Shown in pieces: positions 1,499 to 21,141 of a DNA stretch of 31,428 bases (within the stretch, counting starts at the first letter, position 1; each line of letters starts with the position of its first letter). Under the pieces are notes generated by a model. It did no database searches. It saw only the letters and a program-made list of their open reading frames with translations, and was not told where the DNA came from. The DNA is taken from the UHGV virus genome UHGV-0241329, one strand, 5' to 3'. Position numbers and translations under genes: made by a program. This stretch comes from a virus.

Positions 1499-1521
1499 GC
1501 CTCGCATTCGCGGGGCTTTTT
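1499..1521 (+). terminator. Putative intrinsic terminator downstream of lysis genes
   Basis: GCCTCGC-ATTC-GCGGGGC stem-loop (one G-U pair) followed by TTTTT. Confidence 0.45.
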
Positions 1522-1815
1522 ATTGCCATTACAAAAGCCACTTCCTACAGAGTGGCTTTGATAATGGCTTATACCCTACACGGGATAACTTAACTGATAT
1601 CCCTTTTAAAGGATAAAGGTATTCAAGCCTGACACATCATGCGCTGTATCGTCGCCGTATTCCCGTATTAACAGAGACCGTAGCCCGACGGGGAACTCCT
1701 TCTGCGCGAGTGTGTGGGAATAATCAAAAACGATGCACACCGGGGTTACCGGGTACACATATTTCATCATGCCAGCGAGTCCGGTTCTGGCACGGAAGAA
1801 ACCGGACGTTATGAT

Positions 1816-2241
1816 TTAGTGCGGAAATATTTGTGTAGTGTTCTGAATGTTCTCAGTAAAGAGTAATGAATTATCAAAGGTATAGTAATACCTTTTGTTT
1901 TCGTGGATATTTGTAATCCATCTGAAAACCCCTGCTGTAGCAAGATTTTTCCTGTATTCGTAAAATGATAACTCTCCTGATTTGAATCCTTTTAAGGTGG
2001 CTTCTATAAGGCATTTATTTTTTGAAAATCTTACATTTACAACCTTACCCTGTCCTTTTATTAAAACCGTATTATCGTTTTCAAGAACAAGATGAATATT
2101 CTCTGTGGCTAAATAGTAAATGTAATGTGAGACATTGTGACGTTTTAGTTCAGAATAAAACCAGTGATAGTTTAAATTATTTCGCACTTTATCGAATATT
2201 TGTTTAAAAATGGCAACCTGAGCCATTGTAGTACCTTCCAT
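1816..2241 (-). CDS. Hypothetical protein, visibly AT-rich moron between lysis cassette and cos
   Basis: 141-aa ORF on reverse strand, AT-rich relative to flanking phage genes; no motif recognised; true start may be the internal Met (MAQVAIF). Confidence 0.5.
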
Positions 2242-2282
2242 GTGATATGAGGGGTGTAGTCTGCACGATTATCTAAATTGCT

Positions 2283-2516
2283 TCAATCTGGTCTGATCTG
2301 TTTTCTGAGCAATTCAGTAATGTCACTCTTTTCTTTGTTTGCTTCAGGAGAAACTCTTTTTTCTGAGCACAGTCTCCGGCGGCAGGCTTCAATGACCCAG
2401 GCTGAGAAATTCCCGGACCCTTTTTGATCAAGAGCGATGTTAATTTGTTCAATCATTGGGTTAGGAAAGCGGATGTTGCGGGTTGTTGTTCTGCGGGTTC
2501 TGTTCTTCGTTGACAT
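2283..2516 (-). CDS. ylcI: Small DNA-binding protein, YlcI/DUF3950-like
   Basis: 77-aa ORF; recalled close match to DLP12 YlcI (MSTKNRTRRTTTRNIRFPN.MIEQINIAL.QKGSGNFSAWVIEACRRRL); sits immediately upstream of cos. Confidence 0.6.
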   Translation of the reverse strand: MSTKNRTRRTTTRNIRFPNPMIEQINIALDQKGSGNFSAWVIEACRRRLCSEKRVSPEANKEKSDITELLRKQIRPD

Positions 2517-2689
2517 GAGGTTGTCCCGTATTCAGTGTCGCTGATTTGTATTGTCTGAAGTTGTTTTTACGTTAAGTTGATGCAGATCAATTAATATGAT
2601 ACCTGCGTCATAATTGATTATTTGACGTGGTTTGATGGCGTAGATGCACGTTGTGACATGCAGATGATAATTATTATCATTTTGCGGGT

Positions 2690-2900
2690 CCTTTCCGGCG
2701 ATCCGACAGGTTACGGGGCGGCGACCTCGCGGGTTTTCGCTATTTATGAAAATTTTCCGGTTTAAGGTGTTTCCGTTCTTCTTCGTCGTAACTTAATGTT
2801 TTTATTTAAAATACCCCCTGAAAAGAAAGGAAACGACAGGTGCTGAAAGCGAGCTTTTTGGCCTCTGTCGTTTCCTTTCTCTGTTTTTGTCCGTGGAATG
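2690..2900 (+). other. cos: Prophage cos site (cosQ-cosN-cosB); 12-nt cohesive end GGGCGGCGACCT at 2716..2727
   Basis: Sequence ...ATCCGACAGGTTACG/GGGCGGCGACCTCGCGGGTTTTCGCTATTTATGAAAATTTTCCGG... matches the recalled lambda cos ends; R-site-like motifs (CGTTTCC) continue up to Nu1. Confidence 0.9.
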
Positions 2901-2904
2901 AACA

Positions 2905-3424
2905 ATGGAAGTCAACAAAAAGCAGCTGGCTGACATTTTCGGTGCGAGTATCCGTACCATTCAGAACTGGCAGGAACAGGGAATGCCCGTTCTGCGAGGC
3001 GGTGGCAAGGGTAATGAGGTGCTTTATGACTCTGCCGCCGTCATAAAATGGTATGCCAAAAGGGATGCTGAAATTGAGAACGAAAAGCTGCGCCGGGAGG
3101 TTGAAGAACTGCGGCAGGCCAGCGAGGCAGATCTCCAGCCAGGGACTATTGAGTACGAACGCCATCGACTTACGCGTGCGCAGGCCGACGCACAGGAACT
3201 GAAGAATGCCAGAGACTCCGCTGAAGTGGTGGAAACCGCATTCTGTACTTTCGTGCTGTCGCGGATCGCAGGTGAAATTGCCAGTATTCTCGACGGGATC
3301 CCCCTGTCGGTGCAGCGGCGTTTTCCGGAACTGGAAAACCGACATGTTGATTTCCTGAAACGGGATATCATCAAAGCCATGAACAAAGCAGCCGCGCTGG
3401 ATGAACTGATACCGGGGTTGCTGA

Positions 3425-8814: not shown

Positions 8815-8835
8815 GCCGCCTGTGCGGCTTTTTTT
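8815..8835 (+). terminator. Stem-loop with T-run between D and E
   Basis: GCCGC-CTGT-GCGGC followed by TTTTTTT. Confidence 0.4.
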
Positions 8836-8848
8836 ACGGGATTTTTTT

Positions 8849-9124
8849 ATGTCGATGTACACAACCGCCCAGCTGCTGGCGGCAAATGAGCAGAAATTTA
8901 AGTTTGATCCGCTGTTTCTGCGTCTCTTTTTCCGTGAGAGCTATCCCTTCACCACGGAGAAAGTCTATCTCTCACAAATTCCTGGACTGGTAAACATGGC
9001 GCTGTACGTTTCGCCAATTGTTTCCGGTGAGGTTATCCGTTCCCGTGGCGGCTCCACCTCTGAATTTACGCCGGGTTATGTCAAGCCGAAGCACTTAGCA
9101 TGGCTTTCTGAGGCTTTCGTGTAG
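8849..9124 (+). pseudogene. E: Major capsid protein E, 5' fragment (about 82 codons) truncated by the insertion and fused to 9 foreign codons (LAWLSEAFV)
   Basis: MSMYTTAQLLAANEQKFKFDPLFLRLFFRESYPFTTEKVYLSQIPGLVNMALYVSPIVSGEVIRSRGGSTSEFTPGYVKPKH matches recalled lambda gpE N-terminus, then diverges at 9094. Confidence 0.9.
9084..9093. repeat. attL core, AGCCGAAGCA (left copy of 10-bp direct repeat)
   Basis: Identical 10-mer at 9084..9093 and 20351..20360, exactly where lambda E homology stops and resumes. Confidence 0.8.
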
Positions 9125-9203
9125 TTGCTGGTTTTTACACTTAATCTTTTGATAATAAAGAATAAGTTTATCTGGCGCTTTCACTGAATTTTCCTCGTTA
9201 TCT

Positions 9204-9245
9204 GTGTGTTGCAATCATCTCTGTATTGCAGCTTGTATTGCTTTT
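9204..9245. repeat. Putative integrase arm-type sites (TGTATTGCA-like repeats) in attL arm
   Basis: TGTTGCAA / TGTATTGCA / TGTATTGC at 9207..9241; same motif twice near attR (20253..20273). Confidence 0.45.
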
Positions 9246-9256
9246 TGGGGCTAAAA

Positions 9257-10492
9257 ATGGCTGGCGAGAACAAACTGAGCGACAAAGCGCTTAAAGGATA
9301 TCTGGGGAAACCCAGAGAAAAGCAGATCACCATTGCTGATGGAAAGGGGCTTTCTATTCGTGTGAGTACTAAAGGGGCTGTGAGCTTTGTTTTCTTCTAC
9401 AGGTTAGCAGGTGGCCGGGCTGCTCCGGTCTGGCTAACGTTGGGTAAATATCCTGATATGTCACTCAAATAGGCAAGGGAAAAGCGCGACGAGTGCCGTG
9501 GTTGGTTGGTTGACAAACGTGATCCGCGTATCCAGATTAAGATTCAGGCTGAAGAACGCTTAAAGCCGGTCACAGTGGAGGATGCACTAAATTACTGGTA
9601 TGAAAATTACTGTAAGGTGCGTCGTAAAACTCATGCTGTAACGCTTGGCAGATTTCGAAAGCATATCTTTCCCTATATCGGTCATTTGCCCGTAAATGAC
9701 ACTCACCTATATGAATGGCTGGACTGTTTTGACCGAATTAAACGTAATGCACCAGTTATGGCGGCGTATGTTTTTTCTGACACTAAATTAGCTCTTCGTT
9801 TTTGTCGGGTACGCCAGTACGCGACGTGTGATGCTTTAAAGGATTTGCGCATGAGTGATGTGGGGCAGATTGCAGGTAAGCGGGATCGGGTTCTGGATGA
9901 AGCCGAACTGGGCCAGCTCTGGAAGGCAATTTTTGTCGAGCCTGATTTAAAACTAATGTCTGAATACACGCGAAAAATGTTTGTGCTTTGTACAGTATTT
10001 GGATGTCGAATGAGTGAAGCCCGATTATCTGAATGGAGCGAATGGGATCTCGAAAGTTGGGTTTGGACTGTACCAAAAGATCACTCAAAAACTGGTGTTG
10101 AAATCGTCAGACCAGTACCTGAAATTCTACGACAGTGGGTAACGGATGTTCACGAAGAGACAAAACATACTGGTTATGTGCTGGGAAGTCTGCGAATTAG
10201 AGAAAGCGTAAGCAAGATTGGGGGGAAAATCGGTAAACGTTTGGGCCATGAAAAACAATGGTCACTACACGACCTTAGAAGAACGCTATCTACTCATCTA
10301 AGTGATCTCGGTGTTGAATTTTATGTAGTAGAACAACTGTTAGGCCATGCGCTACCTGGCGTGGCAGGTGTTTACAACAGGAGTAAGTTTATGGCTAAAA
10401 AACTGGATGCTCTGGAACTCTGGACTACATATCTCAATAGCATCGCAGCTGCTGATTCAAAAGTGACAATCCTCAAACAAAAGGCTGGTTAA
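9257..10492 (+). pseudogene. int: Tyrosine integrase (P4-like family) interrupted by in-frame amber codon TAG at 9470..9472
   Basis: Two same-frame ORFs (9206..9472 and 9506..10492) separated only by TAG; N-terminal arm-binding-like domain; C-terminal catalytic motifs HDLRRT and LLGH..GVAGVYNRS. Confidence 0.8.
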
Positions 10493-10493
10493 C

Positions 10494-10721
10494 ATGAAAA
10501 AAATGGCAATTGTTGATAAAAAGGGTCTGGAGTACATTCCTAACATTGACCGAATGATCCGTGAGAAAGAATGTCGGGAGCTAACCACTCTTGCGAACAG
10601 CACACGCTGGAAGCTGGAGAAGGAAGGAAAATTTCCTAAGCGGATCAAGATTGGCGCTACTGCGGTAGCTTATCGTCTCTCCGAAGTTCAGGCATGGATT
10701 AAGGGAGAATGGAGTAATTAA
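10494..10721 (+). CDS. alpA: AlpA-family phage transcriptional regulator / excisionase-like HTH protein
   Basis: 75-aa ORF immediately after int; sequence resembles CP4-57 AlpA-type HTH proteins (LSEVQAWIKG-like C-terminus). Confidence 0.7.
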   Translation: MKKMAIVDKKGLEYIPNIDRMIREKECRELTTLANSTRWKLEKEGKFPKRIKIGATAVAYRLSEVQAWIKGEWSN

Positions 10722-10739
10722 ATAATAAGGTATTTCGAT

Positions 10740-11561
10740 ATGACAATGTGTGTTATTTGGAAGTCAGTTGATGGAACTATTTATGCCGCCACAGATTCTC
10801 GACTGAGCTTTGAAGAAAAAAAGTTAGATCGTTGCGTTAAAATATCCCGAATCACATGTCTTTTACATGAGCCTAGTGATGCAGTAGATACAAGTAAGAT
10901 ACTTGTTGATAAGCGTGAGATTGCTACATTATTCTGTGGAGGCTTTACAAATGCCTATATCATCAAGGAGAGCCTTACTGAGATTTTAAATAAAATAGTT
11001 CTCATGAGGGAATACTCCGGTGTGCCCTTTTCGGAAATTATAGATATAGCGTTTTCCATTTATGAAGATACATCAAGAGATATGTTTGCATCATTAATGG
11101 ACCAACGATTTGGATGTGTTTTTTACATGATAAGTTACTGCCCTGTATATAAGGAAATGCAAGCATTTAAATTTGAATTCAAAATAAATGAAAGCGGTAT
11201 TAACTATTATAAATCTAAACTTTTTGAAGATCGTAACTATGAGGTTAATGGAAGTGGGGTGAGGTACTTGGAACAAAATCATCGTATTGAAGATCTAGTT
11301 AAAGAAGCTTATCAGAAGAATAAATACACACCACTTCTAGATATACTTGAGTCCGTAATTAATGATGACGACTGTGACTCTGTTGGAGGTGCAATGCAAT
11401 ACATTTCATGTAATAAAGATAGTCTAAAATTGTGTTGTCATATGTTATTTGAAGAAAATAATTATAAGTATATGAAAGCTGGGGTGGACTTAAATGAACT
11501 CAATGAGAAGTTTATACCTTCTGGTTTGTTTTTTGAGACAGATGCAATCATCAAAAGATAA
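10740..11561 (+). CDS. Hypothetical protein, AT-rich cargo gene
   Basis: 273-aa ORF, visibly AT-rich; no motif recognised; N-terminus MTMCVIW... gives only a faint hint of an N-terminal Cys nucleophile. Confidence 0.55.
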   Translation: MTMCVIWKSVDGTIYAATDSRLSFEEKKLDRCVKISRITCLLHEPSDAVDTSKILVDKREIATLFCGGFTNAYIIKESLTEILNKIVLMREYSGVPFSEIIDIAFSIYEDTSRDMFASLMDQRFGCVFYMISYCPVYKEMQAFKFEFKINESGINYYKSKLFEDRNYEVNGSGVRYLEQNHRIEDLVKEAYQKNKYTPLLDILESVINDDDCDSVGGAMQYISCNKDSLKLCCHMLFEENNYKYMKAGVDLNELNEKFIPSGLFFETDAIIKR

Positions 11562-11866
11562 ACGATAACCGACTTTGATTGTGATAATTTTATCAAGATT
11601 ATGATGAATGCTGCAGTATATCTAACATGCTGCAGTTAACTCAATTTGTATTATCGCTAATATTTTTAATAACAAGGATGTTTATTGCTTTTTTATTTGA
11701 GAGTGAACGTCTAACCATTGTTGTTCTTAGTTCTCATGGAGAGATTGGAGCTTAAAATACGCAATGTTTTGAAATCAGCGCAACTATATTCCGTAATTGT
11801 TCTTTGTCGTTCTTGCGTGGCACGGTGATACACCTCTCATGTCGGTTGTTTTTTTGAACGCAGAAA

Positions 11867-11896
11867 CATAAAACAAAGGCGACCGGGATGGTCGCC
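11867..11896 (-). terminator. Intrinsic terminator downstream of the SWIM gene
   Basis: GGCGACC-GGGAT-GGTCGCC perfect 7-bp stem; on reverse strand followed by TTTGTTTTAT. Confidence 0.6.
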
Positions 11897-11964
11897 AGTG
11901 GCATAACACTAAAATTGAGCGTATTCAGAATACCAAGTGTCGGCTGGTGGACAATGGAATCAGT

Positions 11965-12321
11965 TCAATATTTAGGTGGTTCAACAAGAGCGTTTATCAT
12001 TGCTCTCAAATTATCGCGAACACTTATCCAAGTCTGTTCTGCTCGTTCTAACTCATTAGTGTACAGCTTTAATGTTTTATCTATGCCATATGTGGCTATT
12101 AAATTTATAGCTTCTTGTAACTTTTCGGGATTATTCCTTCTTGGGGGAGTGAATATACCGCGGATTTTTCCGGTAATTAAAGCTTTACGGTGTCTACATA
12201 GAATACCTTTACTTCCTGCTGGACAATTACAAGTCATGATTAGCGAGCCAGAATCGTTTGATACAGTGACTATGTATACATCCAAACTACTGCTACTTGT
12301 TGCGAAGAATTCGTATTTCAT
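11965..12321 (-). CDS. Small SWIM-type zinc-finger protein
   Basis: 118-aa ORF with CNC-x9-CRH (CxCx(n)CxH) motif; co-oriented 28 bp downstream of RHH gene. Confidence 0.55.
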   Translation of the reverse strand: MKYEFFATSSSSLDVYIVTVSNDSGSLIMTCNCPAGSKGILCRHRKALITGKIRGIFTPPRRNNPEKLQEAINLIATYGIDKTLKLYTNELERAEQTWISVRDNLRAMINALVEPPKY

Positions 12322-12348
12322 GTGTTAGCTCCTTGACTTCAATTATTC

Positions 12349-12543
12349 TTATCCTTTTGGTTCAATACCGCGCCGTAGCAGCTCTTTGCGCCCTAACTCT
12401 TTAAGCCAGTTGGCAAGGCTTACCCCATCGTTACTGGCTTCGTTATCAAACTGCTCCTTCAATTCAGGAACTATGCGCATATGGAACGGTGGGGCCTTTC
12501 CTGTGCCTTTTTGTTTTTTATCGCGCTTAATAACCGTTGACAT
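12349..12543 (-). CDS. Ribbon-helix-helix (Arc/CopG-like) DNA-binding protein, candidate element repressor
   Basis: 64-aa ORF; FHMRIVPELKEQF beta-strand followed by helices; start codon overlaps a palindromic operator. Confidence 0.5.
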   Translation of the reverse strand: MSTVIKRDKKQKGTGKAPPFHMRIVPELKEQFDNEASNDGVSLANWLKELGRKELLRRGIEPKG

Positions 12544-12600
12544 GTGTACACCTATAGCGTTATGTTTTTATTCGATAGGTGTACACCTTAACATGTGTGC
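12541..12600. promoter_or_regulatory. Divergent control region with palindromic operators
   Basis: GTGTACACCTAT (12544..12555) and its inverted copy ATAGGTGTACAC (12575..12586), each containing palindrome GTGTACAC; ACATGTGT repeated; TTGACA at 12537..12542. Confidence 0.5.
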
Positions 12601-12878
12601 ATTTAAAAACGCAACGCCCCGCAGTGCGGGAACACATGCAGGGCGTCTAACCACCAACGATAGCAACAGTATCGAGGTAGCTATGAGAAATCATACCACA
12701 CACCCGCAAGGGCGGGACTCGCACAACCTGAATAAATTCACTTGGCGCTTTATCGCCCTGAGTGCGGCTAAACCGCGCATGCTTACCATCGTGGTCACCA
12801 GCGAGCAGGAAGACCGCCAGCAATCCCCAACTGGCTGCGTGATGATATTCGCCGCCCGTATTCGTCAGGAGGTGTGCC

Positions 12879-13103
12879 ATGAATGATCTTTATTTTAAAG
12901 TGCTGACACATGCTGAAAACGCGCTCGTTTGTGGCAAAAATATGCGAGAAATCTTATCAACCTGGCTTGATGGGACAACAAATGCGGAACACGATGAACG
13001 GGATGCTAATTTAGCTGGAGCGTTAATTACGTTACTTGATCCTGTCATCAAAGAGCTGGATGAAGCTATAAAAATACACGACCAGAGCTATACCGGAGAA
13101 TAA
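12879..13103 (+). CDS. Hypothetical small protein
   Basis: 74-aa ORF, first gene of the rightward operon leading to primase. Confidence 0.45.
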   Translation: MNDLYFKVLTHAENALVCGKNMREILSTWLDGTTNAEHDERDANLAGALITLLDPVIKELDEAIKIHDQSYTGE

Positions 13104-13106
13104 AAA

Positions 13107-13394
13107 ATGAAAAATAAATTTTCTGGCTTTATTGCCAGCGGTCAAACTCATTCAAAAATCAGCCTTGGGGATATTTTCAAAGACAGCTATGGCTATCGGG
13201 TAAAGATTATTTCGGTTGATGATCGTCGTGTCTCTTATTTGCGTGATGGTTATGATTTTGAATGTGTTATGCCGCGTCAGCAGTTCGAAAGAGATTTCAT
13301 TCTGGTAAAAAATTGCAAGACAGATAATCAGAGGCGTGCCGCAGGCTATATCCGTAAAATTCGGGCAATGTTAGTTGCCGGAGGTAACAAATGA
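13107..13394 (+). CDS. Hypothetical small protein
   Basis: 95-aa ORF; 3' end overlaps primase start (ATGA). Confidence 0.45.
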   Translation: MKNKFSGFIASGQTHSKISLGDIFKDSYGYRVKIISVDDRRVSYLRDGYDFECVMPRQQFERDFILVKNCKTDNQRRAAGYIRKIRAMLVAGGNK

Positions 13395-15211
13395 AACGTG
13401 CTCCGAACTTAAAATACCAACCGCGCGACAAAATGACGGAAGTCATCATTTTTGCTGGCAGTGATGCCTGGAGCCATGCAAAAGAATGGAATGAATGGGC
13501 AGGTAAGCATATTGCAGCAGATGATACACCACCAGTCATTCTGGGTACGGAACAACTGGAAAACCTGGATGATATGCAAATTATCGATGAAGGCCGTCAT
13601 TATGTGCGTGTTTATCGTGCCGGAAAGATTGCAGAGAAAAGTCTGACGAAGGTTGCGACATTACTTGCTATTGCAGGCGTAAAGGAAGCACGTTGTTACC
13701 GTAGCTTTGTTGATCGAGAGCCTGAAGACTGGACTCCGCGCCTTGTCGGCCTAAAAGCTGAAGCGGAGCATGGGGAAAGTCTGGTGATTGAACTGCCAGT
13801 GAAGAAGGCAGAGCGCAAAAATGACGAGCGTGCTTCATCTTTGGCGTTGAATCAGATGGGGGCCAGCCAGCGCGGTGAAGTTCTCCTTGCACATTACGGC
13901 GGTGAACTGGCAATCAATGCCGACTCTGACACCGTTCATCATTACAACGGCGTTGTATGGGAGCCGGTTCAGGATAAAGAGTTACAGCGTTCTATGGCGC
14001 AGATTTTCATTGATGCGGAGATCAGCTATTCGCAGAACGCTATTAAATCGGCGGTAGATACCATGAAGTTAAGTTTGCCTGTAATGGGGAATACAGCCCG
14101 TAACCTGATTGGATTCAGTAACGGGGTATTTGATACCAGAACTGGTAATTTTCGGGAGCATAACAAAAACGACTGGTTGTTAATTGCCAGTGAATTACCT
14201 TTCAGCCCACCAGCAGAGGGGGAAACGCTGGCAACACATGCGCCGAATTTCTGGAAGTGGTTGCGCCGTTCGGTGGCTGAGAATGACCGCAAGGCAGATC
14301 GCGTACTGGCGGCATTATTCATGGTGCTGGCGAACCGGTACGACTGGCAGTTATTCATTGAGGTAACAGGGCCGGGGGGAAGTGGTAAAAGTGTGATGGC
14401 GGAGATTTGCACCATGCTGGCGGGTAAGGCTAATACAGTATCAGCAAGCATGAAGGCGCTGGAAGATGCAAGGGAACGTGCGTTAGTGGTTGGCTTTTCG
14501 CTGATTATCATGCCGGATATGACCCGCTACGCTGGTGATGGGGCAGGGATTAAGGCCATTACAGGCGGTGACAAGGTGGCAATTGACCCGAAACACAAAG
14601 CCCCCTATTCAACGCGTATTCCGGCAGTAGTGCTGGCGGTTAACAATAACGCCATGTCATTCAGTGACCGCAGCGGGGGGATCTCACGTCGTCGGGTGAT
14701 ATTCAATTTTTCGGAAGTTGTACCGGAGAACGAACGCGATTCGATGCTGGCGGAAAAAATAGAAGGTGAGCTGGCGGTAGTGATTCGTCATCTGCTTACA
14801 AGGTTTGCTGATCAGGACGAAGCCAGACGCCTGTTATATGAGCAGCAGAAATCTGAAGAAGCACTGGCGATAAAGCGAGAGGGGGATTCGCTGGTGGACT
14901 TCTGCGGTTATCTCATGGCATCGGTAATGTGTGATGGCCTGTTAGTGGGTAATGCTGAAATTGTGCCATTCAGCCCACGCAGGTATCTCTATCATGCCTA
15001 TCTGGCTTATATGAGGGCACATGGGTTTGGTAAACCTGTAACACTGACGCGCTTCGGTAAAGATATGCCGGGGGCAATGGCGGAATATGGCAGGGAGTAT
15101 ATGAAACGGAAAACGAAGCACGGTTTGCGTTCAAACGTGACACTGACGGAGGAATCAGAAGACTGGATGCCATCATGTGTATCGGTCACTAATGACGATA
15201 GCAAAAATTAA
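13391..15211 (+). CDS. Primase-helicase replication protein (P4 alpha / PICI Pri-Rep-like)
   Basis: 606-aa ORF; Walker A EVTGPGGSGKS in C-terminal half; followed directly by iteron origin. Confidence 0.75.
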   Translation: MKRAPNLKYQPRDKMTEVIIFAGSDAWSHAKEWNEWAGKHIAADDTPPVILGTEQLENLDDMQIIDEGRHYVRVYRAGKIAEKSLTKVATLLAIAGVKEARCYRSFVDREPEDWTPRLVGLKAEAEHGESLVIELPVKKAERKNDERASSLALNQMGASQRGEVLLAHYGGELAINADSDTVHHYNGVVWEPVQDKELQRSMAQIFIDAEISYSQNAIKSAVDTMKLSLPVMGNTARNLIGFSNGVFDTRTGNFREHNKNDWLLIASELPFSPPAEGETLATHAPNFWKWLRRSVAENDRKADRVLAALFMVLANRYDWQLFIEVTGPGGSGKSVMAEICTMLAGKANTVSASMKALEDARERALVVGFSLIIMPDMTRYAGDGAGIKAITGGDKVAIDPKHKAPYSTRIPAVVLAVNNNAMSFSDRSGGISRRRVIFNFSEVVPENERDSMLAEKIEGELAVVIRHLLTRFADQDEARRLLYEQQKSEEALAIKREGDSLVDFCGYLMASVMCDGLLVGNAEIVPFSPRRYLYHAYLAYMRAHGFGKPVTLTRFGKDMPGAMAEYGREYMKRKTKHGLRSNVTLTEESEDWMPSCVSVTNDDSKN

Positions 15212-15220
15212 ACTTATGGA

Positions 15221-15455
15221 ATAACTGTTCACCACTGTTCACCCTGTCATAAATATCTTTTATATCAGTATATTATAGGGTGAACAGTTATTTATGAACT
15301 GTTCACCAAACTATTCACTGTTCACCTTTTTGATTGTTTATTGAGCTTCAAGGGTGAACAGTGGTGAACAGTTGGTGAATAGTTTTTGTGAAACTGTTCA
15401 CCCATTAACATTATGAATTAAAAGAGAAAATATCAAAAGGTGAACAGGTGAAGGG
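15221..15455. repeat. ori: Replication origin with iterons (TGTTCACC / GGTGAACA), at least 9 copies in both orientations
   Basis: CTGTTCACC at 15225 and 15235; GGTGAACAG at 15278, 15352, 15362, 15439; further copies at 15299, 15318, 15394; interspersed AT-rich stretches. Confidence 0.75.
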
Positions 15456-15498
15456 TTAAAACGCAAAAATTTTAATTTACTGCTGTGAGATAAAGCCT

Positions 15499-15744
15499 AT
15501 GACAGCGAAGCACACAAAAAAATCACAATCGCACGCCCTTGATTTGACGGAACACTGGTTAAGGGTGTCGATAAAAATCATCGACCGCAACGCCGGGGAA
15601 GGATACGCGAAAGCACATCCCGAACTGATTAGCGCATTCATGACAACGGCGGCTGCAAACTTTGCCACTCTGACCGAACGGGAGATTGCTGAAGCGGAGG
15701 AAGTGACAACAATCAATATTAAGTCCGGAGAGCAGGCAGCATGA
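15499..15744 (+). CDS. Hypothetical protein
   Basis: 81-aa ORF between ori and ssb; ATGA overlap with ssb. Confidence 0.45.
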   Translation: MTAKHTKKSQSHALDLTEHWLRVSIKIIDRNAGEGYAKAHPELISAFMTTAAANFATLTEREIAEAEEVTTINIKSGEQAA

Positions 15745-16190
15745 CGGCGCAAATATCAGTTTACGGGCGGTTGGTGGACGACCCGCAGACAAAACAGACC
15801 AGCAAGAGCACCCCCATGACGCTGGCACGTATGGCGGTATCACTGCCCTGCAGTCAGTCGGATGACGGTCAGGCGACGATGTGGTTATCTGTCCTGGCGT
15901 TTGGCAGACAAGCCGACGCGCTGGCAAAGCATCACAAAGGCGAACTCCTGAGCGTGGCGGGTAATATGCAGGTGAGCCAGTGGACTGGACAGAACGGTGA
16001 AACGCGGCAGGGCTGGCAGGTTATCGCAGACAGCGTAATCAGTGCGCGAACGGTGCGACCGGGCGGCAAAAAAGGTCAACAGGGTCAGGCTACTGACGCA
16101 CTGAACAGAGCAAAACAACAGGCAGATCAGCAAGGAAGCCATCCACCAGTGGGAGATAATGAGCAATGGGGAGATGATATTCCGTTTTAA
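15741..16190 (+). CDS. ssb: Single-stranded DNA-binding protein
   Basis: 149-aa ORF; Gly/Gln-rich linker and acidic C-terminal tail ...GDDIPF, typical of SSB. Confidence 0.8.
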   Translation: MTAQISVYGRLVDDPQTKQTSKSTPMTLARMAVSLPCSQSDDGQATMWLSVLAFGRQADALAKHHKGELLSVAGNMQVSQWTGQNGETRQGWQVIADSVISARTVRPGGKKGQQGQATDALNRAKQQADQQGSHPPVGDNEQWGDDIPF

Positions 16191-16402
16191 ATATTGCCAA
16201 TAAAAAAGGCCGGAAAAAAAATAAATTTTCCGGCATGCTACATAAATCCCGACCAAAGGGAGTGAAGATATTAACACTAATTATCCGCGCTGAAGTTGTT
16301 ATCCCAAAACTTTATACAACATTGCACTCGGTTGCATGTATTCGCATGATAAATATCGGTGATAGCATATATCCACAATTATTTTTAATGAATGCAAAGA
16401 GG

Positions 16403-17449
16403 ATGCGTATGGTTGATTTATATTCGCCTACCCAGCTTGTACAGGTGGTTAATGCTGTAGATGTACAAAAACAACTAAATGCGTTGTTTACCAGTTTGTT
16501 TTTTACTCGCTCGGTAATGTTTGAATCGCGCGATATTATTCTTGATACAATCGACGATCCAAATATCCCAATTGCAGCGTTTTGTTCTCCTATGGTGGGT
16601 AGTAAAGTTTCACGTGACGAAGGGTACGAATCAAAAACAATTCGTCCAGGCTATATGAAGCCGAAAAGCAGCATTGATCCAAATAAGTTAGCTGTGCGCC
16701 CTGCTGGTGTATCACCTGAGCAATACAATGCTTTTGGAGCGCGTAATATTAAAGTTAAACAGGCGATTGTAAATCAGGCTAAAGCTATTCGTGCACGTAT
16801 TGAATGGCTTGCCGTTCAGGCAATCACAACGGGGAAAAATATCATTGAGGGCGATGGTATTGAACGTTATGAGCTGGACTGGAATATTAAACCACAAAAT
16901 ATCATCACTCAGTCTGGCGGTGCTGAGTGGTCAGGTAAGGATAAAGAAACTTTTGATCCAAATGATGATATTGAGAGCTACGCAGAATTTAGTGAGGGCG
17001 TCACTAATATCATCATTATGGGCGGTAATGTATGGAAGAAATACCGTTCATTCAGAGCGATAAAAGAGGCTCTGGATACCCGTCGTGGTTCTAATTCCGA
17101 ACTGGAAACGGCCCTTAAAGACCTTGGTGATTCGGTGAGTTTTAAAGGGTATATGGGCGATGTTGCGATTGTTGTATACAGCGGGCGTTATACCGATGAG
17201 GACGGAACTGAAAAACATTTCCTTGATCCTGATTTGATGGTGCTTGGCAATACAGCTCTTCAGGGGATTGTCGCCTATGGCGGTATTCAGGATCCGGAGC
17301 TAATCCGAATGGGGCTGACTAAAGCCGAACTTGCACCGAAAAACTATATTGTGCCTGGTGATCCGGCTATTGAATATGTGCAGACACATTCAGCACCACA
17401 GCCAATACCGGCCCGCATCAATCGTTTTGTTACCGTTCGCATTGGCTAA
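16403..17449 (+). CDS. Major capsid protein, divergent homolog of lambda gpE, encoded by the element
   Basis: Aligns along its length with lambda gpE, e.g. ITQSGGAEWSGKDKETFDPNDDIESYA vs ITQSGGTEWSKRDKSTYDPTDDIEAYA, and LDTRRGSNSELETA identical; start uncertain among ATG 16388/16403/16409. Confidence 0.8.
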   Translation: MRMVDLYSPTQLVQVVNAVDVQKQLNALFTSLFFTRSVMFESRDIILDTIDDPNIPIAAFCSPMVGSKVSRDEGYESKTIRPGYMKPKSSIDPNKLAVRPAGVSPEQYNAFGARNIKVKQAIVNQAKAIRARIEWLAVQAITTGKNIIEGDGIERYELDWNIKPQNIITQSGGAEWSGKDKETFDPNDDIESYAEFSEGVTNIIIMGGNVWKKYRSFRAIKEALDTRRGSNSELETALKDLGDSVSFKGYMGDVAIVVYSGRYTDEDGTEKHFLDPDLMVLGNTALQGIVAYGGIQDPELIRMGLTKAELAPKNYIVPGDPAIEYVQTHSAPQPIPARINRFVTVRIG

Positions 17450-17458
17450 GGGGGAGCA

Positions 17459-17800
17459 ATGGCTACTCATTACACTGAACTCATGGCTGGCACTGAAGCA
17501 CTGGTGACTACGCTGGGGATATTTTCAGCTAATAAAGGGGTAATTCCTGCATTTACGCCACTGATGCAGGAAGATGCAACAGGTGCACTGGTGGTATGGG
17601 ATGGTTCGAGCGTAGGTAAAGCGGTTTATGTTTCCGCTGTACAAATCGACACCGCGAAAAAAACACAGGCTCAGGTCTATAAGACAGGTGTCTTAAATGT
17701 TGATGCTCTGAACTGGCCTGAGTCTGTAAAAGAACTGTCAGTAAAGATTGCAGCGTTTGTTGGCTCAGGTATTTCTGTTCAGCCGCTGGCTCGTGTGTAA
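17459..17800 (+). CDS. Head decoration protein, divergent homolog of lambda gpD
   Basis: 113 aa; LVVWDGSSVGKAVYVSAVQ...KTGVLNVDALNWPE...AAFVGSGISV parallels lambda gp[20 protein letters not shown]...[14 protein letters not shown]...[11 protein letters not shown]. Confidence 0.65.
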   Translation: MATHYTELMAGTEALVTTLGIFSANKGVIPAFTPLMQEDATGALVVWDGSSVGKAVYVSAVQIDTAKKTQAQVYKTGVLNVDALNWPESVKELSVKIAAFVGSGISVQPLARV

Positions 17801-17811
17801 AGGGGGATACA

Positions 17812-18195
17812 ATGCAGAATGATTACAATGACCTTAAGCCAATTGCCGAAATGATGTACCCGAATCCAGCTGTAGAGGAATTAAAAGCTATCGCTGACAA
17901 AATGTGTTTAAGCGAGCGCCTTGTTGATATGAATCAGGTGATGGAAATTACAACCCTGAGTCGGCGTACACTGCTAAACCTTGAGGCTAGTGGAGAGTTC
18001 CCGGAGCGTGTGCAGGTTACGGAAGGGCGTAAGGCCTGGTATTTAAGTGAAGTGATCGACTGGATAAATAATATTCCTCGCGCTTCTGAATATTGCCGCG
18101 TACCTGTCCCAAAAAAGCCAGATGCGGCGCTATGCCTCAAGATTGAGCGTGTACGCCGCAATGCACGGGATGGTCGCTATAAGCTGATTGGTTGA
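17812..18195 (+). CDS. HTH protein (AlpA-like DNA-binding segment) immediately upstream of element cos
   Basis: 127 aa; segment MNQVMEITTLSRRTLLNLEASGEFPERVQVTEGRKAWYLSEVIDWINN resembles AlpA/MerR-type HTH. Confidence 0.5.
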   Translation: MQNDYNDLKPIAEMMYPNPAVEELKAIADKMCLSERLVDMNQVMEITTLSRRTLLNLEASGEFPERVQVTEGRKAWYLSEVIDWINNIPRASEYCRVPVPKKPDAALCLKIERVRRNARDGRYKLIG

Positions 18196-18214
18196 TGAAA
18201 TTAGGGCCCGCTCT

Positions 18215-18425
18215 GGCTGGCGGGTCCTTTCTGGCGATCTGACAGGCTACGGGGCGTCAGGCGCGCAGATTCTTGCTATTTATGACAATTTTCTGCGATT
18301 TGCCGTTTCCGTTCTTCTTCCTCGTAACTTAGTGTTTTTATTAGAAATACCCTCTAAAAAGAAAGGAAATGACAGGTGCTGAAAACAGGCTTTTGGGTCT
18401 CCGTCATTTCCTTTCTCATTTTTAT
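18215..18425 (+). other. cos: Element cos site, homologous to prophage cos but with divergent cohesive-end sequence GGGCGTCAGGCG (18252..18263)
   Basis: Aligns with 2690..2900: cosQ-like GCGGGTCCTTTCTGGCGATCTGACAGGCTACG and cosB-like GTTTCCGTTCTTCTTC / AAAGAAAGGAAATGACAGGTGCTGAAA conserved; cohesive-end 12-mer differs at 5 of 12 positions. Confidence 0.8.
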
Positions 18426-18679
18426 CTAAAAGTAAGCATCGAGGCCACCCCAAATGCTTATAGAGGTTATTGTGTCACTATGCGTACTGTTCAGGATTTA
18501 AAGTAGCAAGACATCTAGTTGCTTGCAGTTTTGGCGAATGATGTGAGGTTCTGCTATAACAGATAATGTAACAAGTTACTGATATATTCTGTTATGGTTG
18601 ACTTTAAATTTTGTTGCTCCTTCAATGAATTATTGAGGGGTGAAAATTAGGCGTGATAAGAATCGATCACGCCTATTGT

Positions 18680-19996
18680 TTATCTTGAAGAAATTTTAGG
18701 CAGGCTTTTTAAAAATAAATCTTTATTTCTACTTGCATCAGTTAAAAGTGTTAGGAATATTTTATCTGTAGGAGTGCATGTGCTCTTGTTTAACAGTAAT
18801 TCACCAAGTTTCTGTAATCGAGAGAATTGCCCATCCTCTTGGATTCTGTGACGAAGTGTACTATCATTTTTAATAACATCAACAAATGCAGAAACCATGT
18901 TAATATCAAAGTGTTCAAACATTTCCAATATTAAAGGTGCAGCCCCATTTGAATAAAAATTCTTCCTTCCATACTGATAGCTGAAACCACGATGGCCAAC
19001 ATAAGTTTTTGTAATGGCTGAAACAAATTCAACAATATTATCTTCAGGGACGAAACTCGAGAATGGTAATAATTGGGTTACGATTTTTTCCTCTTCTGAC
19101 CAATTATCTAAAGACTCGGTGAGTTTATTAATGAGAGGCTCAATAATAACTTTTCGGGATGCAGGGCTAATATACATCAGTCCATCTACCAATAGTATGA
19201 ATTGTTGTGCCTTCTCTATCTTATTGTTGTTTCCTGAAACTAAATACTTGTCAAATTGTTGGCCGACTTTACGTCGGTCGTCTTTTGAAAGTAATGTCCA
19301 TAAAATAGGTGCGCAAAATTCAATGTTGTTTCTGAGTTCACTTGATATATTGGATGAGCAGTATGTGCCAAAAAAACGAGAGGATAATTCACTGATATAA
19401 ATTGCAGGTAGATCTGAAAAGGCTTGCTTAACTGCCAGGCTATTTTTATTAAATGTTGCCGAATCCATTTCTGAAAGATATGTAGATATATCTATGATGG
19501 CTGGTGGAAACTCTTTAGAAAGAACGTATTTATTACAATCATTAATCAGGTTCACTACTTTGATTAAATCAGGGTCGCTACTTTGTGGATGTCCACCAAA
19601 TAGATTCCTGGTTTCTCTAGCTTGTTGTAATAGTTTCTGACCTTCTCGATCGATAACTCCTATTTTAAATGCTCCATCTATTAAATCAAAGTCGCTCACA
19701 TAATCCTGAAAATCTTCATACGTTTTAATTTCTTTTTTTTGTTTACACTCTTTGTTGAATAGATCTAGGCTACGATGAATTATCTTTTGACGTAAATCAT
19801 CAACTACAGCATTCCAGTAAGCAGTGATGGCACTTCTATAACCTTTTACAGGAAGAACTCTTATTGCTTCTGAAATATATGGGCAGTCAACTACATCATG
19901 CCTCACAGTTGAGAGCGCAGTTTGTAACAATGTAACTTCTGTAGAGTCTAGTGGAGTTGGCTGCACTAAATGAGAACTTATCTCTGTACCCTTCAT
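18680..19996 (-). CDS. Hypothetical protein, AT-rich cargo gene at attR end
   Basis: 438-aa ORF on reverse strand, visibly AT-rich; no motif recognised; hairpin AGGCGTGAT-N8-ATCACGCCT at 18649..18674 just 3' of it. Confidence 0.55.
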   Translation of the reverse strand: MKGTEISSHLVQPTPLDSTEVTLLQTALSTVRHDVVDCPYISEAIRVLPVKGYRSAITAYWNAVVDDLRQKIIHRSLDLFNKECKQKKEIKTYEDFQDYVSDFDLIDGAFKIGVIDREGQKLLQQARETRNLFGGHPQSSDPDLIKVVNLINDCNKYVLSKEFPPAIIDISTYLSEMDSATFNKNSLAVKQAFSDLPAIYISELSSRFFGTYCSSNISSELRNNIEFCAPILWTLLSKDDRRKVGQQFDKYLVSGNNNKIEKAQQFILLVDGLMYISPASRKVIIEPLINKLTESLDNWSEEEKIVTQLLPFSSFVPEDNIVEFVSAITKTYVGHRGFSYQYGRKNFYSNGAAPLILEMFEHFDINMVSAFVDVIKNDSTLRHRIQEDGQFSRLQKLGELLLNKSTCTPTDKIFLTLLTDASRNKDLFLKSLPKISSR

Positions 19997-20350
19997 TTCA
20001 GGATTTTCCTATTCTTTTCCATTTTTCTACTCTATTGAATTTGAAAAAGATATCAAGTTCGTTCTTGCCAGTTTTAAGTGGAAAAATTGATGTTACCTTA
20101 TTGAGATAAGGCAGTTCTCTATAACCTATTGTTATTAATTATTTTTATTTTTTTTCCAATTCAGATGTTTAGGGCTAAGAAGTTAAGTGAGAGTTCACAG
20201 CAAAACTGCTTCTAGTTCCTCACCGAGGAGCAAAAGGTTAAGACAGCGTACTTTGTATTGCACAATGTATTGCAGAACCTTCTTTCGAAAGCTACAACAA
20301 TCAATTTTATATTGAAAATTCAATCATATCCTTTCGATATTGACTCATAT

Positions 20351-20360
20351 AGCCGAAGCA
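20351..20360. repeat. attR core, AGCCGAAGCA (right copy of 10-bp direct repeat)
   Basis: Identical to 9084..9093; lambda E homology resumes here. Confidence 0.8.
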
Positions 20361-21141
20361 TGAGGTGAATCCGCAGATGACCCTGCGTCGCCTGCCGGAT
20401 GAAGATCCGCAGAATCTGGCGGACCCGGCTTACCGCCGCCGTCGCATCATCCTGCAGAACATGCGTGACGAAGAGCTGGCCATTGCTCAGGTCGAAGAGA
20501 TGCAGGCAGTTTCTGCCGTGCTCAAGGGCAAATACACCATGACCGGTGAAGCCTTCGATCCGGTTGAGGTGGATATGGGCCGCAGTGCGGCGAACAACAT
20601 CACGCAGTCCGGCGGCACGGAGTGGAGCAAGCGTGACAAGTCCACGTATGACCCGACCGACGATATCGAAGCCTACGCGCTGAACGCCAGCGGCGTGGTG
20701 AATATCATCGTGTTTGATCCGAAAGGCTGGGCGCTGTTCCGTTCCTTCAAAGCCGTCAAGGAGAAGCTGGATACCCGTCGCGGCTCTAATTCCGAGCTGG
20801 AGACAGCGGTAAAAGACCTGGGCGAAGCGGTGTCCTATAAGGGGATGTATGGCGATACGGCGATCGTCGTGTATTCCGGACAGTACGTGGAAAACGACGT
20901 CAAAAAGAACTTCCTGCCGGACAACACGATGGTGCTGGGGAACACTCAGGCACGCGGTCTGCGCACCTATGGCTGCATTCAGGATGCGGACGCACAGCGC
21001 GAAGGTATTAACGCCTCTGCCCGCTACCCGAAAAACTGGGTGACCACCGGCGATCCGGCGCGTGAGTTCACCATGATTCAGTCAGCACCGCTGATGCTGC
21101 TGGCTGATCCTGATGCGTTCGTGTCCGTACAACTGGCGTAA
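20353..21141 (+). pseudogene. E: Major capsid protein E, 3' fragment (from codon about 80) lacking its native start
   Basis: PKHEVNPQMTLRRLPDEDPQNLADPAYRRRR...VSVQLA matches recalled lambda gpE C-terminal 260 aa; in-frame TAG at 20350..20352 immediately upstream. Confidence 0.9.

Follow-up and report, generated by a model that had tools for sequence, protein, structure and literature searches.

The window analysed here, i.e., the whole 31,428-nt stretch listed as UHGV virus genome UHGV-0241329, represents a lambdoid prophage of Escherichia coli with genes for terminase, portal, S49 protease, decoration protein D, and tail proteins; its major capsid gene is split by a second mobile element, a helper-embedded phage-inducible chromosomal island (PICI). 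The subject of this study is a gene of this island at positions 10740 to 11561 (hereafter the target gene), which encodes a protein of 273 amino acids (aa) and belongs to the accessory cargo that is exchanged in the slot after alpA. We are highly confident that the protein adopts the proteasome-beta/HslV-type fold, i.e., that of the T1 branch of the N-terminal nucleophile (Ntn) hydrolases; by fold and active site it is a member of this superfamily that lies outside the Pfam Proteasome family as it is modelled now. From the gene neighbourhoods in which the family occurs, we further propose, with about an even chance of being right, that the protein is a proteolytic effector in the conflict among phages, hosts, and mobile elements, acting as a single-gene anti-phage defence that may be of the abortive infection type.

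The target gene and the fold of its product

10740 to 11561, + strand: target gene, ATG start, encoding a stand-alone proteasome-beta/HslV-like protein of 273 aa (T1-type Ntn hydrolase fold)
10727 to 10730, + strand: Shine-Dalgarno-like AAGG, 9 nt 5' of the target ATG, as read from the sequence

The ATG of the target gene is the first start codon past an in-frame stop in the open reading frame (ORF) reading of the window. An identical protein is encoded on 59 public E. coli contigs, on every one of which it is labelled "hypothetical protein", and 14 homologues with 41-99% identity were found in Klebsiella, Pectobacterium, Serratia/Yersinia, and on an Enterobacter plasmid. When 1.8 billion cluster representatives were searched with a profile, at least 296 relatives were obtained at E ≤0.001, nearly all of which are 255-300 aa long and align from residue 1; the family is represented in Gammaproteobacteria, Bacteroidota, Verrucomicrobiota, and Balneolaceae. 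Because dN/dS is 0.08-0.17 (Nei-Gojobori; four orthologues, from E. coli, K. aerogenes, Pectobacterium, and Serratia), and because identical copies as well as homologues across genera exist, the target is a genuine gene under purifying selection and not a chance ORF.

The fold assignment comes from structure comparison, in which the 48 best Protein Data Bank (PDB) clusters were all proteasome beta or alpha subunits, Anbu, HslV, or BPH, and the protein shows the four-layer alpha-beta-beta-alpha sandwich with proteasome topology. Beyond the proteasome core there are approximately 90 family-specific residues; these comprise a further helix, between H3 and H4, and a C-terminal extension from about residue 225 to residue 273, in which a beta-hairpin with a helix is found at about residues 225-261. 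Among the BFVD viral structures there were only weak matches, to phage proteasome homologues outside the target family, and the only match in PHROGs was the unannotated phrog_16034.

Sequence comparisons, on the other hand, link the family to known proteasome proteins only faintly, and this has to be set against the fold assignment. The window protein has no match to the Pfam Proteasome model (PF00227), which matches only 3 of 110 family members, marginally (best E 0.0069). A profile of these 110 sequences reached no better than E 0.35 against the PDB (with proteasome beta1i), and hhalign comparisons between the family and T1 peptidases gave probabilities of only 3-13%, with HslV reference sequences that may be inexact. 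Sequence searches of the PDB with the single target protein or with a 15-sequence profile gave no match, nor did the protein match any family in Pfam, NCBIfam, or PADLOC (PADLOC-DB v2, 0 families at E ≤0.01). A preliminary description of this stretch, made from its letters alone, had recognised no family and had proposed hidden Markov model and fold searches as a check; its first statement holds for Pfam, NCBIfam, PADLOC, and PDB sequences.

The target family differs from each of the well-described members of this superfamily. Compared to beta subunits of the 20S proteasome (MEROPS T1, PF00227), the target protein is only 11-18% identical, which is below the Pfam threshold, lacks a propeptide, an alpha-subunit partner, and a conserved Asp166 equivalent, carries the approximately 90 extra residues, and is encoded on a mobile element. 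Compared to HslV (ClpQ), a two-ring Thr protease activated by HslU, it is about 100 residues longer and is encoded at a non-housekeeping locus; in the annotated contexts examined, no HslU-like AAA+ gene adjoins members of the family, and identification of the target as an HslV was rejected given the lack of both an HslU-like gene and a conserved neighbour. The gene for Anbu shares a conserved operon with genes of the ATP-grasp and transglutaminase-like kinds. Like the target, Anbu and BPH stand alone, without a propeptide and without a dedicated AAA+ partner (PMC5666114, PMC5777263), whereas the target family has no conserved neighbour and is set apart by motifs of its own (MTLC-x-W and SVGG-x-x-QYG) and by its C-terminal extension.

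A further comparison is with the 22 uncharacterised families of proteasome homologues, including GPH, PMI-1 to -6, DPH, and RPC, which Fuchs, Alva and Lupas (2021) obtained by iterative searches; according to that paper, a C-terminal domain without a known fold is present in some of these families, a link to phages exists for some, and GPH is gammaproteobacterial (PMC8665760). Like the 22 families as they are presented there, the target family is prokaryotic and proteasome-like with a conserved triad, and it may be one of them. None of the accessions of 10 target-family clusters is found among the 22 representative accessions of that paper, in which WP_152342571.1 represents GPH. The members in Bacteroidota, Verrucomicrobiota, and Balneolaceae make the target family wider than the name GPH suggests and thus argue against a plain equation of the two; unlike PPH and RPC, it has both the H1 and the H2 helix. 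In the passages of PMC8665760 that were consulted, no family is linked to defence systems or satellites.

Predicted active site

The following residues correspond to catalytic or signature positions; conservation was counted over the 110 family members, whose identity to the window protein is only about 20-25%.

10743 to 10745, + strand: codon of Thr2, the predicted N-terminal nucleophile (proteasome Thr1); Met1 in 110/110, followed by Thr in 106/110 and Ser in 4/110
10794 to 10802, + strand: codons of Asp19-Ser20-Arg21 (proteasome Asp17-Ser18-Arg19); Asp19 110/110, Ser20 107/110, Arg21 103/110
10839 to 10841, + strand: codon of Lys34 (proteasome Lys33); 110/110
10938 to 10940, + strand: codon of Gly67, candidate equivalent of the oxyanion-hole Gly47, in the motif F-[AC]-G-[SG]; 109/110
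11250 to 11258, + strand: codons of Gly171-Ser172-Gly173 (proteasome Gly128-Ser129-Gly130); 110/110, 78/110, and 95/110, respectively
11379 to 11402, + strand: codons of the signature S-V-G-G-x-x-Q-Y (residues 214-221); Val215 106, Gly216 106, Gly217 109, and Gln220 107 of 110

No N-terminal extension or propeptide was present in any of the 110 members. HMMER aligned the SDSR...K of the family with SDSR (Asp17) and Lys33 of immunoproteasome beta1i, and hhalign paired Thr2, Asp19, FAGS, and GSG with Thr1, Asp17, FAGG, and IGSG of HslV. As judged from these alignments, the Thr1/Asp17/Lys33/Gly47/Ser129 constellation is retained in the family, and conservation makes Thr2 the likely nucleophile rather than Cys4. 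The alternative of Cys4 (the protein reads MTMC, with Met3 as a possible start) was rejected, as Cys occupies this position in 90/110 members compared to 106 Thr plus 4 Ser at position 2, the family consensus MTLC has a single Met, and Thr2 aligns with HslV Thr1. The preliminary description had seen in the N terminus a weak resemblance to Ntn hydrolases; this hint stands for the superfamily and can now be narrowed to the proteasome-beta/HslV-type fold, with Thr2 and not Cys4 as the likely nucleophile. Both Cys4 (10749-10751; 90/110) and Cys134 (11139-11141; 101/110) are highly conserved and correspond to none of the catalytic positions of the proteasome.

On the strength of this conservation and of the fold, the target protein is probably an active Thr protease; the lack of conservation at position 213, the equivalent of proteasome Asp166, is a point against this view. 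Removal of Met1 would make Thr2 a free N-terminal nucleophile, which would then work with Asp19, Lys34, Gly67 (in the oxyanion hole), and the Gly171-Ser172-Gly173 loop in peptide bond cleavage, and the protein would be expected to oligomerise as its relatives do.

Cargo status, gene neighbourhoods, and proposed role

9257 to 10492, + strand: tyrosine integrase gene (int) of the island, interrupted by an in-frame TAA at 9470-9472 (Pfam Arm-DNA-bind_3 and Phage_integrase)
10494 to 10721, + strand: alpA, of the PICI regulator/excisionase family, co-oriented with and directly upstream of the target (Pfam Phage_AlpA, E 6e-15; also annotated in RefSeq in the copy of E. coli ET665)
11562 to 11964, no strand: non-coding spacer between the target and a convergent SWIM-finger gene, forming the right edge of a variable slot (no ORF of at least 60 aa; GC 0.375)

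The target start codon lies 18 nt from the alpA stop codon. With a GC content of 0.335 (GC3 0.285) in a comparison of the window genes, the target gene departs from int (0.451), alpA (0.443), the whole island (0.426), and the flanking prophage genes (0.57-0.58), and differs little from the downstream SWIM gene (0.37). In other genomes, similarity of the island backbone restarts at the SWIM gene, beyond the spacer. Of 5426 complete E. coli genomes, 181 contain the backbone running from int and alpA to SWIM and only 4 contain the target gene, and the slot between alpA and SWIM is elsewhere occupied by a DUF2971 protein or by an unrelated 265-aa protein; the target gene is thus exchangeable accessory cargo of the slot after alpA. 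The DUF2971 protein of this slot weakly matches the PADLOC candidate PDC-S31 (E 1e-4), and a DUF2971 gene in the 3' slot of one related locus (L008) matches it strongly (E 8e-26); the right-end slot of related islands is likewise variable.

Immune systems are reported at both the 5' and the 3' end of PICIs (PMC11364771). The target gene lies in the same kind of place as the immune genes described at PICI ends (cited in PMC11364771) and in P4/P2 hotspots (PMC9122126), namely a variable slot after int and alpA of a Gram-negative PICI, in which the AT-rich gene varies from strain to strain; it differs from this known cargo in that it is not in PADLOC and in that its element is a helper-embedded variant (PMC10111431). 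What the preliminary description had said of the gene and its location is confirmed: the AT-rich 273-aa ORF was found on the + strand at exactly the coordinates it gave, its composition departs from that of the flanks (with the small contrast to the SWIM gene mentioned above), it follows int and alpA, and its status as cargo of an integrative island is supported, as is the argument from its placement. The description had missed both the location of the island within a prophage capsid gene and the inactivation of int.

Approximately 31 non-redundant contexts of the family were examined, the neighbours in which were annotated in part; related loci were sought with a 14-sequence subset of the 110-sequence alignment. 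Ten of these approximately 31 contexts adjoin recognised defence systems, five are satellites, and two are integrative and conjugative elements (ICEs). Several associations are with restriction-modification (R-M) genes. In one locus (L022), the family gene lies between hsdS and hsdR with overlapping reading frames; in a Flavobacteriales type I R-M operon (L021, 5200-8935), the order hsdM, hsdS, DUF4145, family gene, an unknown 236-aa protein, GmrSD, and hsdR is seen, and this order is repeated in two others (L049, L050). In a Verrucomicrobiae metagenome-assembled genome (L019, 6001-7404), a 467-aa fusion of the proteasome-like domain with a C-terminal GrpB domain adjoins a type I R-M operon. 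Other members are found directly 3' of BREX pglZ-brxL (L048), at a MADS locus (L027), near a Gabija-like OLD-TOPRIM ATPase and UvrD helicase together with nSTAND3 and Hsp70/AAA genes (L035), with two GmrSD genes and a YhcG nuclease (L046), in an integrase-bounded island with a NACHT NTPase (L033), next to an AbiZ-like gene (L010), and on a conjugative plasmid with an adjoining AAA_16/nSTAND1 protein (L006). This pattern is the usual one for single-gene defence or abortive infection genes. A position between hsdS and hsdR is particularly characteristic of such genes, with PrrC as the classic case. As a separate observation, the four passenger genes between hsdS and hsdR in L021 form a compact nested defence island.

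In addition to the window, the satellites comprise a K. aerogenes island at the same capsid-E site (L032), an element in a prophage terL of K. variicola (L004/5), one further PICI (L034), and one with a PICI-type primase (L047). The ICEs are a Pectobacterium element with 2.7 kb between the family gene and an anti-restriction gene of the ArdC type (L002/3) and a CTnDOT-like element (L025). A tblastn search of INPHARED phage genomes did not find the target gene, a plasmid search gave a single match, and there was one match to an IMG/VR contig. An all-against-all BLAST of neighbours identified no conserved neighbour gene in 19 loci, and a conserved partner gene for the family was rejected on this result.

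Two details of the satellites may be added. The K. variicola element (L004/L005, CP020847) is a PICI within the large-terminase gene, with a truncated 215-aa TerL_ATPase just upstream of int, and encodes capsid, S78 protease, and portal. In a Klebsiella-type subfamily, whose members are about 40% identical to the target, a 179-aa ORF without a counterpart in the window comes next after the family gene; this ORF overlaps the stop codon of the family gene by 4 nt in L034 (6635-7174) and starts right after it in L004 (8833-9372, within L004/L005), is 73% identical between the two loci, has no Pfam match, and may encode a partner specific to the subfamily.

If the target protein is a defence effector, it would cleave phage or host proteins during infection and so stop phage replication, without an ATPase partner. 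The target gene would be transcribed together with int and alpA, as the three genes are co-oriented and no plus-strand terminator was predicted between int-alpA and the target (nor elsewhere before the target or after it). Late transcription of the helper might also reach the gene by read-through. The Lit protease of prophage e14 is a zinc metalloprotease that acts in phage late gene expression as a single-gene abortive infection system. As a single protease borne on a mobile element, Lit could be a functional analogue of the target protein, which is mechanistic speculation only; the two have no relationship in fold. Helper late transcription has been proposed for the prototype element 11capE (PMC10111431).

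A number of results count against a defence role. The adjacency to defence systems in about one third of contexts is a raw share, taken over partly annotated loci and with no genomic background; about one fifth of contexts (about six: L013, L018, L020, L023, L030, and L053) are ordinary chromosomal neighbourhoods, and about one quarter are uninformative. The lack of a PADLOC match, reported above, belongs here as well. Promoter-like sites near the target numbered 11 compared to 9.1 expected from shuffled controls, i.e., without excess, and an own promoter for the target was rejected for this reason; with such matches at chance level, the constitutive expression that would be expected of a sentinel defence gene is without support.

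Among the alternatives, an accessory proteasome-family protease or amidase without any part in such conflicts (e.g., a stress protease for a particular niche, an enzyme that processes peptides, or a ligase similar to connectase), hitch-hiking on mobile elements, appears unlikely, although it keeps an appreciable share of the probability. The ordinary chromosomal neighbourhoods are in line with such an enzyme, as are the fusion to a GrpB domain in L019 and the many uncharacterised bacterial families of the superfamily, one member of which, connectase, is a ligase (PMC8665760).

A counter-defence or establishment factor, i.e., a protease that degrades host immune or stress proteins to the benefit of satellites, ICEs, and plasmids, would fit the presence of the family on PICIs, on ICEs (near an ArdC-type gene in L002/3; CTnDOT-like in L025), and on a conjugative plasmid. 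This reading has a small probability in our view, as several homologues are placed within chromosomal defence operons or at their end (L022, L021, L048, and beside Gabija genes in L035), a placement typical of defence genes and not of anti-defence genes, and as the family was not found in the bona fide phage genomes of INPHARED.

Interference specific to the satellite, in which the protease would process or degrade capsid or scaffold proteins of the helper and thereby favour packaging of the island, is suggested by the location of the gene in a helper-embedded PICI, co-oriented with the helper late genes, and by the fact that the island encodes capsid and decoration homologues and no protease. 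This is very unlikely, given that only 4 of the 181 backbone islands carry the target, which thus is not part of the core satellite life cycle, and that homologues are found beside R-M, BREX, and Gabija genes and on ICEs and plasmids, where capsid genes are lacking. Finally, a catalytically dead scaffold or sensor with a proteasome fold, comparable to proteasome alpha subunits, would agree with the non-conserved Asp166 equivalent and with a Ser at position 172 in only 78/110 members, and the catalytic competence of the family is a prediction, but the near-invariant Met-Thr N terminus, Asp, and Lys make it highly improbable.

To our knowledge, bacterial proteasome-type proteases are known only as housekeeping or stress machines (HslV and the actinobacterial 20S proteasome) or as orphans to which no role has been assigned (Anbu, BPH, and families defined in silico). 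The target family represents a compact, single-gene, mobile proteasome homologue that recurs among R-M, BREX, Gabija, and MADS genes as well as in the slot of phage satellites that holds immune cargo, and it hence provides an entry point to two questions, the role of orphan proteasome homologues and the contribution of uncharacterised PICI cargo. A search of the literature on proteasome homologues (proteasome-like or HslV-like) found no link to phage defence or satellites, and neither the defence catalogue nor the open-access literature searched contained an immune system with a proteasome fold. Both the element and the superfamily are already known, and it is the link of this family to defence loci and satellites that appears to be undescribed. 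We tentatively raise the possibility, which we hold to be somewhat doubtful, that the family constitutes the first proteasome-family (Thr1 Ntn) protease to serve as a stand-alone bacterial immune effector, shuttling among satellites, ICEs, plasmids, and defence islands without an ATPase partner. If the target protein does act in defence, bacterial immunity would gain a new effector chemistry, and prokaryotic conflict systems a further link to the eukaryotic proteolytic machinery; if it does not, a fold and an active site have still been assigned to a family that is everywhere labelled "hypothetical".

The host island and its other genes

9084 to 20360, + strand: helper-embedded PICI of about 11.3 kb inside a lambda-E-like major capsid gene (split capsid gene, repeat, and architecture as in 11capE)
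16235 to 17800: E-like capsid and D-like decoration genes of the island itself

The lambda-E-like major capsid gene E of the prophage is split by the island into fragments at 8822-9124 and 20365-21141, and a 10-bp repeat or identity block, AGCCGAAGCA, is found at 9084-9093 and again at 20351-20360 (att repeats). The genes of the island are arranged in the order int, alpA, target, convergent SWIM-finger gene, Arc/HicB-like gene, Icd-like remnant, and DUF4222, followed farther on by a D5/P4-type primase, SSB, E-like capsid, D-like decoration, a second AlpA-like gene, and a minus-strand AT-rich ORF. The features that define helper-embedded PICIs at the site named E:Phage_cap_E, i.e., int, alpA, a D5/P4-type primase, co-oriented captured late genes, and the att block, are thus all present. 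The prototype 11capE has the same gene order, an insertion in the capsid gene, and a 10-bp identity block (PMC10111431); because gene order and block agree with 11capE, the host element of the target is of an already known kind, the helper-embedded PICI of that study.

The TAA in int (9470-9472) replaces the codon of Gln72 and is not found in the otherwise matching copy of E. coli ET665. Owing to this nonsense codon, the satellite copy in the window is probably immobile and without excision, and the capsid gene of the helper would then stay disrupted for good.

The island carries another AT-rich ORF as cargo at its 3' end (18680-19996, minus strand, 438 aa, GC 0.349), which belongs to phrog_27609 and has no match in Pfam, NCBIfam, or PADLOC; its slot is occupied in related islands by a DUF2971/PDC-S31 protein or by an unknown 311-aa protein, and it represents a further, putative candidate immune gene. 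The SWIM zinc-finger protein (118 aa; 11965-12321, minus strand), encoded convergently with the target and kept in the island backbone, has a weak PADLOC match to the candidate PDC-S62 (E 1e-4), and its gene is adjoined by that of the Arc/HicB-like protein (64 aa; 12349-12543). A terminator-like hairpin on the minus strand lies within the spacer between the target and SWIM genes (11896-11878), and an Rfam scan across the island gave no match. Outside the island, a stretch of low GC content (0.38-0.44) is located at positions 1500-3000 of the window, upstream of the terminase genes; its counterpart in E. coli ET665 carries minus-strand genes of the DUF1398 and YlcI/YnfO families and is a typical prophage moron region.

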